From: a virus
Lineage: Duplodnaviria > Caudoviricetes
DNA: 64,000 nt
IMG/VR virus record: IMGVR_UViG_3300042542_005523
Direction: 5' to 3' (one strand)
The notes beneath the pieces were generated by a model that was not told where the DNA came from, did no database searches, and saw nothing but the letters and a program-made list of their open reading frames with translations. Both the position numbers and the translations under genes were made by a program. Positions 3,357 through 5,820 of this stretch are shown one piece after another; position 1 is the stretch's first letter, and every line of letters begins with the position of its first letter.

Positions 3357-3385
3357 GGAACTTAAGTCATTTCCTTTAGTATAAT
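3357..3385 (+). promoter_or_regulatory. putative early/middle promoter GGAAC-N18-TATAAT
   Basis: Upstream of the UvsE-like gene. Confidence 0.5.
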
Positions 3386-3396
3386 AATAAAAAGGA

Positions 3397-4293
3397 ATGA
3401 TTTCTTTAGACAAGTCTAATTTAGGGTACATCGGTCTCCCGAAGAAAATAAAAGGAAACGGACAGGTTAAAATAAAATCTGTTTATGATTTTCTTAAGCT
3501 AGTTAGAGATTCGATTGTTTATAATTCAAATCTAGGACTTAACATATTATGTCTGGATATAAGCGAATTTGATAATCCGGAACTGTTCGTTGATTTTAGT
3601 TTTGACGAGGAGGATCCTAAAATTTCAGGAATATTATCTAGTATACACGAGATTTCTAATATTAATAAATTTAGGACCTGCTTTATAATACCGAAGGAAT
3701 ATTTTTTGGCTAGTCAACTAGACGGGGTTCCTGATAAAACAATAACACTTCTGGAGAGCCTAGGGTCCATATTAGATGTGCTGGGCCAGAAGGGGAGATC
3801 GATAATAGTTAGAATAGGAAGTGCATATGGAAACAGGAAGGAGACTATAGAGAGATTTTCAGTTAAGTTTGATTTAATATCTAAGCAAACCCAGAAGAGA
3901 ATATCGGTAGTTAACGACGATAAACCCAGCCTTTTTTCAGTAACGGAACTCATATCAGGTTGCTATTATAAATCGGATGTACCGGTATCTTTTAGATTTC
4001 TTAATCATTTATTCAATGACGGAGGTCTTAGTACAAGGGAGGCTTTGTTTCTTAGCTGCTCCACATGGAAGTTCGGCAGTAATCCAATTATGATCCATGC
4101 AGAGTCTGAGAGCGAGGATGAAAACGGATTTCCTGTTAATTCCAAGCCTTCCGGAAGATTGTCTAAAAGAATACCAACATTTGGTCTTTCTGTCGATGTT
4201 ATAATAGATTCACCAGAGAAGGAATTTTGCTGCATTAATTATCTAAAGGACTTTAAGTCACTACCACCATTTGTATTTAATAAGAGAAAATAA
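3397..4293 (+). CDS. uvsE: UV damage endonuclease UvsE/UvdE-fold protein with substituted metal ligands
   Basis: LGYIG, IIVRIGSAYGNR, RISVVNDDK, DVPVSF, STW, IHAES and DVIIDSPEKE are colinear with UvsE; most His/Glu/Asp ligands are replaced. Confidence 0.8.
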   Translation: MISLDKSNLGYIGLPKKIKGNGQVKIKSVYDFLKLVRDSIVYNSNLGLNILCLDISEFDNPELFVDFSFDEEDPKISGILSSIHEISNINKFRTCFIIPKEYFLASQLDGVPDKTITLLESLGSILDVLGQKGRSIIVRIGSAYGNRKETIERFSVKFDLISKQTQKRISVVNDDKPSLFSVTELISGCYYKSDVPVSFRFLNHLFNDGGLSTREALFLSCSTWKFGSNPIMIHAESESEDENGFPVNSKPSGRLSKRIPTFGLSVDVIIDSPEKEFCCINYLKDFKSLPPFVFNKRK

Positions 4294-4994
4294 TGATCAA
4301 TAAAGAAGTAAAAGAAAAAGCTCTGTATTTTGATGTAGAAACTGCGTCTTGTTTCGAAAGTCTAGAAGCATTAAACGAGAGAAATCCGAGATTGGGTGAA
4401 CTATGGGGTAAGAGAGCTAATTTCTATAGAAATTCTTACAAAGAATTGTCAGATATGAATGACGGTGAGATATTCGCTGAAAAATCTGCTCTGGAGGCTG
4501 AATTTTCAAGAATTGTGTGTGTTTCCTTCGGTAGCTTTAATGATGATGGTACGATAAGGACAACATCTTTCTTCGGTGATGATGAGATTGACATTCTCAA
4601 CAAAACAAACAAAATTCTTAACAATGCCCACTCAAAAGGGTGGAAGTTATGCGGACATAACATTAAGGGATTTGATATAGCTTGTCTAGGAAAGAGAATG
4701 CTTTATAACGGTATTACACCTTCTCAGAATATACAGGTTTGGGATAAAAAACCATGGGAGATGCCTTTTCTTGACACCGCAGAGATATTCTCCTTCGGTA
4801 ATTGGATTGGCCAAAAATATCTAGGTCTAGACCTATTAGCATGCTCCCTTGATGTAAGATCCCCAAAAGAGGATATCAAGGGATCGGATGTCTCTAGAGT
4901 CTTCTGGGTCGATAAGAATTTTGATAAAATTAAGGAATATTGCGAGAGGGACGTCGAGACAGTAATGCTGATCATGAATAAGATTTCGGTATAG
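4293..4994 (+). CDS. DEDDy 3'-5' exonuclease (PolB-exonuclease-like, stand-alone)
   Basis: Exo I YFDVET, Exo II GHNIKGFD, Exo III YCERDV. ATG overlaps the upstream TAA (TAATG). Confidence 0.85.
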   Translation: MINKEVKEKALYFDVETASCFESLEALNERNPRLGELWGKRANFYRNSYKELSDMNDGEIFAEKSALEAEFSRIVCVSFGSFNDDGTIRTTSFFGDDEIDILNKTNKILNNAHSKGWKLCGHNIKGFDIACLGKRMLYNGITPSQNIQVWDKKPWEMPFLDTAEIFSFGNWIGQKYLGLDLLACSLDVRSPKEDIKGSDVSRVFWVDKNFDKIKEYCERDVETVMLIMNKISV

Positions 4995-5017
4995 TTACAC
5001 CTTATTGTTTTTTTCTT

Positions 5018-5025
5018 GATATATA
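5018..5025 (+). promoter_or_regulatory. putative late promoter GATATATA in hairpin loop
   Basis: Exact motif 15 nt before GTG 5041, inside a perfect 10-bp stem 5008-5036. Confidence 0.7.
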
Positions 5026-5040
5026 AAAGAAAAAAATTCT

Positions 5041-5820
5041 GTGGTTTTTAATTTCAAAAGTTATCTAAAAGAATCTAAAAGTCCCTTCTATAACGAAGAA
5101 CTTTGCCCTCTTTTTTGGGAAAAAGAAGGAGATGGCAAGGAGTTAGAGTGGAAGCTAGATCCTCTTGTAGGAAAGAAACTTCTGGATATAGCGAATGATT
5201 TTATAGAGGAAGGTTCGGATGTGCTAAAGAAAAAGGATGTTTTGGACATTCAGCTTGTTGGGTCCTTAACTGGTTATAACTGGAACCAGTATTCTGATCT
5301 GGATCTACATATTATTGTAAATTTCAAAGACATGGGCGATGATCCTAAAATGATAGACTATGCTATGTATGGTCTAAAATTCTCATGGAACACGAAACAT
5401 GACATAACAATGAGAGGACATGACGTGGAGATAGCAGTACAGGACGAAGGATCGGAAAGCTACATTTCTACGGTATATTCACTTAGCAAGAAGAAATGGA
5501 TTAAGAAACCTAAGTACTCACCACCTAAAATAGATGAGTTTATGGTGAATAAGAAGTTTAATTCTTTGGCTTACGATATAAGTAAGCTTGAAAATAAGCT
5601 AGTACTGGGCAACGTTTTTCCTTCTAACCCCAAGCCTCTGTATAATATGGCTGCTAAGCTAAAATCTAAAATAATGAAAATGAGAAAAGAGTCCTTATCA
5701 AAAGGAGGGGAATTCTCTGTTGGCAACCTGGTCTTTAAGAAACTCAGATCTGAAGGATATATAGGTAAATTGATCGATACGATCACGAAGTCATACGATA
5801 AAATATACACAATAAAATAA
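5041..5820 (+). CDS. Pol-beta superfamily nucleotidyltransferase
   Basis: GSLTGYNWNQYSDLDLH (GS..DxD) plus DVEIAVQDE; GTG start; N-terminus MVFNFKSYLKES. Confidence 0.85.
   Translation: MVFNFKSYLKESKSPFYNEELCPLFWEKEGDGKELEWKLDPLVGKKLLDIANDFIEEGSDVLKKKDVLDIQLVGSLTGYNWNQYSDLDLHIIVNFKDMGDDPKMIDYAMYGLKFSWNTKHDITMRGHDVEIAVQDEGSESYISTVYSLSKKKWIKKPKYSPPKIDEFMVNKKFNSLAYDISKLENKLVLGNVFPSNPKPLYNMAAKLKSKIMKMRKESLSKGGEFSVGNLVFKKLRSEGYIGKLIDTITKSYDKIYTIK

Follow-up and report, generated by a model that had tools for sequence, protein, structure and literature searches.

A conserved UvdE paralog lacking the canonical metal ligands precedes a 3'-5' exonuclease gene in giant T4-like phages

We analyzed a 64,000-nucleotide stretch of DNA (the window) from the IMG/VR virus record IMGVR_UViG_3300042542_005523. 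It belongs to a giant T4-like phage, uncultured and sampled in lake water, with genes for a prohead protease and for a major head protein; the stretch was found in lake metagenomes of at least 14 studies. This work concerns a pair of genes on its plus strand. The first (3397-4293; P0001) encodes a degenerate paralog of the ultraviolet (UV) damage endonuclease UvdE, a protein of 298 amino acids with a UVDE-type triosephosphate isomerase (TIM) barrel and without the canonical metal ligands. The second (4293-4994; P0002) encodes a stand-alone DEDDy 3'-5' exonuclease of 233 amino acids (PF10108, E = 3.9e-11; phrog_25228, E = 7e-32). The original prediction, made from the letters of the window, had described a full-length UvdE-like open reading frame (ORF) without interruption, whose stop overlaps the start of an intact exonuclease gene, and each of these points held. 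All 298 residues are open, and in the TAATG at positions 4291-4295 (plus strand) the TAA of the UvdE-like gene (4291-4293) shares one base with the exonuclease ATG at 4293. The exonuclease ORF carries the Exo I motif D-x-E (D14/E16), the Exo II motif N-x3-F-D (N123...D128) and the Exo III motif Y-x3-D (Y216...D220); in an alignment of 44 sequences of relatives, the catalytic residues D14/E16, D128 and Y216/D220 were all invariant, as was N123. A promoter-like element, GGAAC-N18-TATAAT, lies upstream of the pair on the same strand (3357-3385), with the UvdE-like ATG 11 nt downstream, and may function as a promoter.

The UvdE-like protein was compared with known sequences and structures. Alignment to PF03851 (UvdE), suggested earlier as a check, placed it above the gathering cut-off (40 bits versus 24; E = 3.5e-10), with a match that spans only profile positions 98-253 of 275, and PF03851 was carried by all 120 relatives listed. 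Among PDB sequences, it matched the Sulfolobus acidocaldarius UVDE (SacUVDE; 3tc3) with an E value of 3e-13 and the Thermus thermophilus UVDE with an E value of 6e-7. An AlphaFold2 model built with 57 relatives in the alignment reached a mean predicted local distance difference test (pLDDT) value of 87 and a predicted template modeling score of 0.88. The closest structure was SacUVDE in complex with DNA (4gle_A; Z = 27.0 over 270 residues, root mean square deviation of 3.0), followed by Thermus UVDE (3c0s; Z = 25.9), while Endonuclease IV and sugar epimerases scored well lower (Z = 15-18, with Z = 18 for Endonuclease IV). The TIM-barrel fold is thus kept in the model, as had been proposed. Because of these profile, PDB sequence and structural matches, we assign the protein to the UvdE fold and superfamily as a genuine member. 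Its score against the TIGR00629 UvsE equivalog was 46.8 bits, under the curated equivalog threshold of 124.45, above which the same function is expected. Searches of PHROGs and PADLOC returned zero matches for the protein.

The state of the metal centre was read from an alignment of 76 canonical UvdEs, collected by searching 1.8 billion representatives with a profile, with 51 family members. We take the three-metal centre to be coordinated by H101, H143, E175, D200, H203, H231, H244 and E269. The Thermus numbering used here was verified on the PDB entries "UVDE E175A" and "UVDE K229L", and the eight columns were 97-100% conserved across the canonical proteins. In the family, H101 (the FHP histidine; canonical conservation of 97%) was replaced by Y, F or I97 (I97 in the window protein) and H143 (97%) by R139, which was itself 98% conserved. 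E175 (100%) gave way to the non-acidic M, T or V172 (window V172), D200 (99%) to R200 with 94% conservation, H203 (100%) to P, N or A203 (window N203) and H244 (100%) to P, T or S251 (window P251). H231 corresponds either to I or F233 (window I233) in an ungapped register or to H234 with a one-residue gap. E269 (100%) corresponds to D or E271 (window D271). Seven of the eight near-invariant canonical ligand positions were therefore replaced in every family representative, Glu269 alone being kept, as Asp or Glu, which confirmed the earlier view that the canonical metal centre has been dismantled. The pattern extended to the more than 250 homologs found in uncultured T4-like giant phages, where His143 and Asp200 are again represented by R139 and R200 and the Glu175 column by a non-acidic residue.

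Every motif change that had been listed against Bacillus UvsE was present in the window sequence, each at a column conserved in canonical UvdEs, and two of the interpretations attached to these changes needed correction. The change from MIEAK to IIDSP exists, but it is a conservative Glu-to-Asp replacement at a position that is Asp or Glu family-wide. The histidine of VH.S, named as the only survivor, is indeed present as His234, but its equivalence to the ligand His231 is ambiguous in register. Phmmer and hhalign paired His234 with His231 via a one-residue gap, whereas MAFFT and hmmalign, which keep the ungapped register P-x-x-H-x-S-E-S, align the ligand column with I/F233 and shift His234 to the next column, which holds Tyr, His or Trp in canonical proteins. 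His234 was replaced by Tyr in 20% of the family.

Parts of the lesion pocket were altered as well. The conserved arginine of YRxSS (97% in canonical proteins) is Cys52. Family members also have shorter loops after strands 1 and 2, so that the canonical R25 (84%) and N47 (99%) fall in gaps; the loop after strand 1 is 6-9 residues shorter. In SacUVDE, residues 10-18 of this loop line the damage pocket, and the Gln-Tyr probing finger of UVDE flips the damaged bases and the bases opposite (PMC3553973). Y102 of the family (83% Tyr) was paired with the probing-finger Tyr by phmmer; in the ungapped multiple alignment, it lay one residue past, with E/D101 in the Tyr column.

The substitutions are old and maintained. 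The 120 matches listed among the homologs shared 42-98% identity, and family members were found on viral contigs of up to 434 kb; a search of 185,579 species genomes yielded only two contigs of metagenome-assembled genomes (MAGs) with a member. An alignment of 57 sequences, in which members were 41-96% identical to the window protein, contained 43 invariant columns. The invariant motifs were R-[IV]-GSAYGNRK, NDDKPSLFSVTDL, FRxLxHxFNDGGLSxREALFLSxSTW and RIPTFGL, and a family-specific tail, SLPPxVxNK, was conserved at the C terminus. Most invariant motifs mapped to the C-terminal ends of strands 4 to 8 and the loops that follow, i.e., to the catalytic face, where the loops GSAYGNRK, NDDKPSLFS, HxFNDGGL and RIPTFG were invariant. 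These loops had lower pLDDT values in the model (63-78); flexible binding loops often show lower pLDDT.

The ratio of nonsynonymous to synonymous substitution rates (dN/dS; Nei-Gojobori, 15 unsaturated pairs) was 0.02-0.09 for the UvdE-like gene, with a median of 0.045, compared to a median of 0.038 for the neighboring exonuclease. In one lake metagenome, seven of nine strain differences fell in third codon positions (phase counted by hand), and the UvdE-like ORF was intact in all 85 loci examined. The dN/dS check that had been called for thus returned strong purifying selection, and neutral decay was ruled out by the low ratio together with the invariant motifs. The kept substitutions, the low dN/dS and the invariant loops indicate that the gene is not decaying. 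Loss of catalytic residues, taken alone, would fit a decaying pseudogene or an annotation artefact; in view of the 85 intact loci, the 43 invariant columns, the number of homologs and the recurrence of the stretch across lake studies, we give this explanation practically no weight. Judged by sequence, the family combines the three features by which pseudoenzymes are operationally recognized, namely, descent from an enzyme family, loss of key catalytic residues and purifying selection.

In an unrooted maximum-likelihood tree, the family and a short sister group formed a single clade (Shimodaira-Hasegawa-like approximate likelihood ratio test support of 100), which a long branch parted from all canonical UvdEs. 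This tree, which has no root and no clear placement of the clade among the canonical UvdEs, lent no support to descent of the degenerate family from the canonical gene of the same phage. The sister group consists of metagenomic proteins of 250-268 amino acids (P0137, P0138, P0143, P0145, P0147 and P0157). They still have His at the His143 position (139), already have I172, R200 and S203, and are missing the last strand and helix; a single 2-kb contig was all that was recovered of their genomic context. The group may be an intermediate or a shortened form of the degenerate family.

Related genomes encode a second, canonical UvdE. Two PF03851 genes were present in all nine related genomes that were at least 85% complete (CheckV) and also in two less complete ones. 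The degenerate copy scored 29-58 bits on PF03851 and the full-length canonical copy 155-187 bits, and the two genes lay 96-106 kb apart. In the 434-kb relative G002, the canonical gene is located at L093:4731-5681, and further copies were found in G003-G006, G010-G012 and G014-G016. The ligand motifs of the canonical copy are intact (FHP, IHV, VEV, FDYLH, THY, AHSD and FEIK), and the canonical paralog of a related phage passed TIGR00629 with 170.9 bits. In the 434-kb relative, the canonical gene is surrounded by genes for the subunits of topoisomerase II, for a full DnaJ and for one of the two halves of DNA polymerase B; genes for a GT2 glycosyltransferase and a RimK-like ATP-grasp protein also adjoin the canonical copy. 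For the same genome pairs, identity was 50-62% for the degenerate copy, 69-81% for the canonical copy and 65-73% for the exonuclease. Because an intact UvdE co-occurs in all nine of the more complete relatives, the degenerate copy is an old paralog with a changed role and not the phage's sole UvdE gone dead.

The presence of both paralogs in each of these nine genomes would also suit a non-catalytic partner of the canonical UvdE, in which the active and degenerate proteins would form a heteromer that tunes the substrate range or recruits repair factors. Pairing of a dead and a live paralog is common among structure-specific nucleases, such as XPF-ERCC1 and MUS81-EME1. Given that the two genes are about 96-106 kb apart in different modules and that the solved UVDE entries found contain the enzyme alone or with DNA, none of them with a protein partner, we consider such a heteromer, proposed by analogy, very unlikely.

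The degenerate gene lies in a conserved block. The block begins with genes for a ligase, a clamp-loader-like AAA ATPase, a guanylate-kinase-like kinase and FEN/RNase H. Three small ORFs, one of them with a UVR motif, come next, then the UvdE-like and 3'-5' exonuclease genes and, 3' of the exonuclease, genes for a nucleotidyltransferase-like protein, a 900-residue protein and the prohead protease. This order from ligase to prohead protease was conserved across contigs of relatives that are only 45-60% identical. The exonuclease gene came after the UvdE-like gene in all 81 loci with enough flank. The two genes overlapped in 9 of these loci and were separated by a spacer of 16-50 bp in 47, and a Nei/NEIL1-type glycosylase gene stood between them in 25 (26 with one truncated locus). 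The translational coupling put forward in the original prediction therefore fits the overlap seen in the window, but since only 9 of the 81 loci overlap, it is a trait of the window's subclade and not of the family. With synteny throughout the region, the adjacency of the two genes says little about contact between their products, and small Cellulophaga and Flavobacterium phages have exonuclease homologs as stand-alone genes. A complex prediction for the UvdE-like protein and the exonuclease gave an interaction prediction score from aligned errors (ipSAE) of 0.00, i.e., "no answer", which counts neither way.

Several observations were made on the surrounding genes. The glycosylase at L058:4888-5703 matched PF01149 (E = 3e-14) and the NEIL1 zincless-finger domain PF09292; the insertion was also seen at L047, L059, L061, L063-L073, L076, L077 and L079-L087, all of one phage branch, and the 64-kb window contained no copy of such a glycosylase gene. 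The nucleotidyltransferase-like gene (window 5041-5820; phrog_36119) lay 3' of the exonuclease gene in 74 of 77 loci. Its model had a pLDDT of 87 and showed weak matches (template modeling score of at most 0.27) to CD-NTases and aminoglycoside nucleotidyltransferases. A viral base excision repair triad of an apurinic/apyrimidinic (AP)-endonuclease-like protein, an exonuclease and Pol X was considered and set aside, as the nucleotidyltransferase-like model gave no match to Pol X. An A/U-only hairpin of 11 bp with a 9-nt loop (5007-5037; -10.6 kcal/mol, z = -2.6 versus shuffles), which differs from a classical GC-rich terminator, lies between the exonuclease stop and the GTG of the next gene. 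Two genes upstream of the UvdE-like gene, positions 2309-2860 encode a 183-residue protein with a UvrB/UvrC-type UVR motif (PF02151, E = 1.6e-6, residues 149-170) whose position is conserved in relatives; this protein could contact host excision-repair proteins. One of the two GTDB contigs with a family member, the 70-kb L100, was binned in a MAG of the Saprospirales (Bacteroidota), and the nearest cultured relatives of the exonuclease are encoded by Flavobacterium and Cellulophaga phages. The binning and these relatives give a faint hint of a Bacteroidota host.

The promoter-like element was also followed across the family. Of 60 distinct related loci, 53 had a RAAC-N15-20-TAnRAW element 5' of the UvdE-like gene; shuffled sequences gave 8.2 on average and 17 at most, and a control stretch within the gene gave 6 of 65. 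The UvdE-like gene probably heads its own transcription unit. A 220-nt contig from a freshwater metatranscriptome corresponds to window positions 3509-3726, inside the UvdE-like gene, with two differences; it is a weak hint of transcription, too little for a claim, and carry-over of DNA is possible.

A gene with its own conserved promoter-like element might act outside phage DNA repair, for example as a decoy or inhibitor of a host nuclease or defence system, or as a shield for modified DNA, and giant phages carry many counter-defence genes. Such a role would sit poorly with the absence of any PADLOC or PHROG match and with the location of the gene, which lies inside the replication-repair block and not in a variable island and which is core and syntenic across contigs of lineages that share only 40-50% identity. 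We therefore regard a role of this kind as unlikely.

The analysis shows that the degenerate copy is an ancient, selected paralog of the phage's UV-damage endonuclease which has kept the barrel and lost the three-metal centre. It is probably a rewired DNA-repair protein that does not cut DNA in the usual way. The roles named in the original prediction, i.e., a damage- or modified-base sensor, a shield against host nucleases and a targeting subunit for the exonuclease, are candidates. The specific mechanism that we tentatively favor, and that we regard as close to an even call, is a barrel without canonical cutting that would bind DNA or a phosphate ligand within the repair module. Hydrolysis by the three-metal route of UvdE and Endonuclease IV would have been lost. 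R139 and R200, at the former His143 and Asp200 metal-ligand positions, could form a positively charged, metal-free pocket together with the invariant loops, and this pocket would bind, not cut, a phosphate-bearing ligand, most likely the DNA backbone at a nick, an end or a distortion. Pyrimidine dimers are improbable ligands, since the family has shorter versions of the loops from which SacUVDE builds its UV-lesion pocket. The protein may then act as a reader or adaptor in a replication-repair module comprising the ligase, the clamp-loader-like ATPase, FEN/RNase H and the 3'-5' exonuclease, to which the Nei glycosylase would belong in some clades, while incision at UV lesions would be carried out by the ligand-intact UvdE encoded about 100 kb away.

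A number of points weigh against this binding function. The canonical copy of the window phage itself is inferred from its relatives, the 47-kb record closest to it among those searched having no UvdE match, and the entire region is syntenic, so that the neighboring genes are weak functional evidence. R139 and R200 might form salt bridges that do nothing more than fill the metal space. The probing-finger Tyr is conserved only when a one-residue shift is allowed. The net charge of the family is not above that of canonical UvdEs; net charge and isoelectric point were tried as a sign of DNA binding and did not discriminate between the two sets of proteins. Conserved D174, D/E175, H204, H234, E236, D267, D/E271 and E276 remain on the catalytic face, and because of these acidic and histidine residues, a new one- or two-metal site, and hence catalysis, is possible. 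Finally, invariant loops on the catalytic face are equally typical of enzymes and of binders.

These last points lead to the main rival, a neofunctionalized enzyme, whose active site would be new, would contain one metal or none and would catalyze a different reaction on DNA ends or nucleotides. The site might be composed of R139, R200, H204, H234, K176, D174, E236 and D/E271; such an enzyme could, for example, clear 3'-blocked ends that a Nei-type lyase leaves behind or act in nucleotide or base modification. Conservation in the protein is highest in polar and charged loops of the catalytic face, as is typical of enzymes, its dN/dS is as low as that of the active exonuclease and, in 25 loci, its gene lies directly upstream of that of the Nei/NEIL1-type glycosylase. 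Metal-free members exist in metal-dependent TIM-barrel superfamilies, such as LigI in the amidohydrolase superfamily; to our knowledge, the group of Endonuclease IV, UvdE and xylose-isomerase-like proteins has no metal-free working member. Against such an enzyme, the putative site tolerates Tyr for His234 in the fifth of the family noted above and N or K for R200 in a few members, and the degenerate copy evolves faster than its canonical paralog. We consider a new enzymatic activity possible but doubtful. Slightly less likely, in our judgement, is the boldest proposal, in which invariant arginines replace the metals and the protein is either an enzyme that processes DNA without metal, by a mechanism new to the Endonuclease IV/UvdE superfamily, or an obligatory non-catalytic partner of canonical UvdE in the manner of ERCC1-XPF; either would constitute a repair pathway specific to giant T4-like phages.

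In the papers that we searched, a conserved UvdE clade without ligands was not described, and UvdE is not mentioned in a study of a new lineage of large aquatic phages. By alignment and profile score, the window protein departs from the features that define the enzyme, namely, its ligand set, its equivalog score and its pocket loop. If the interpretation is true, the family would be the first pseudo- or rewired member of the UvdE/Endonuclease IV group of nucleases and a natural experiment in which arginines took the place of a three-metal centre. Public pipelines label family proteins "UV DNA damage repair endonuclease", a database label that overstates what is known of them; UV-repair gene counts in freshwater viromes would be inflated as a consequence. 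The giant phages concerned would possess one probable UV endonuclease and one protein of a different role. Both the degenerate copy and the canonical paralog are small, soluble-looking proteins.

Compared with known systems, the family is closest to UvdE/UvsE/Uve1 (PF03851 and TIGR00629; 2J6V from Thermus thermophilus, 3TC3 and 4GLE from Sulfolobus acidocaldarius), with which it has sequence homology and the TIM barrel in common. Shared residues are N43, R93, S106, the N-D-D after strand 5, P196, T-W at 223-224, D267 and K-E at 275-276. Unlike these enzymes, the family has seven of eight ligands replaced, shortened strand-1 and strand-2 loops and no YRxSS arginine, the window protein falls below the TIGR00629 cut-off, and the family has invariant motifs and the SLPPxVxNK tail of its own. 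Endonuclease IV (Nfo/Apn1) and the AP endonuclease of African swine fever virus have the same superfamily fold (Z = 15-18), with a viral repair context, but are more distant in sequence and structure and are active three-metal enzymes. The resemblance to ERCC1 with XPF and to EME1 with MUS81 is one of logic only, in that a paralog with a nuclease fold and without catalytic residues is selected beside an active one; the folds are unrelated to that of the UvdE-like protein. The canonical paralog of the same phage lineage resides in the same genomes and belongs to the same protein family, with 21-26% identity to the degenerate copy; unlike the latter, it has intact ligands, evolves more slowly and occupies another gene neighborhood.

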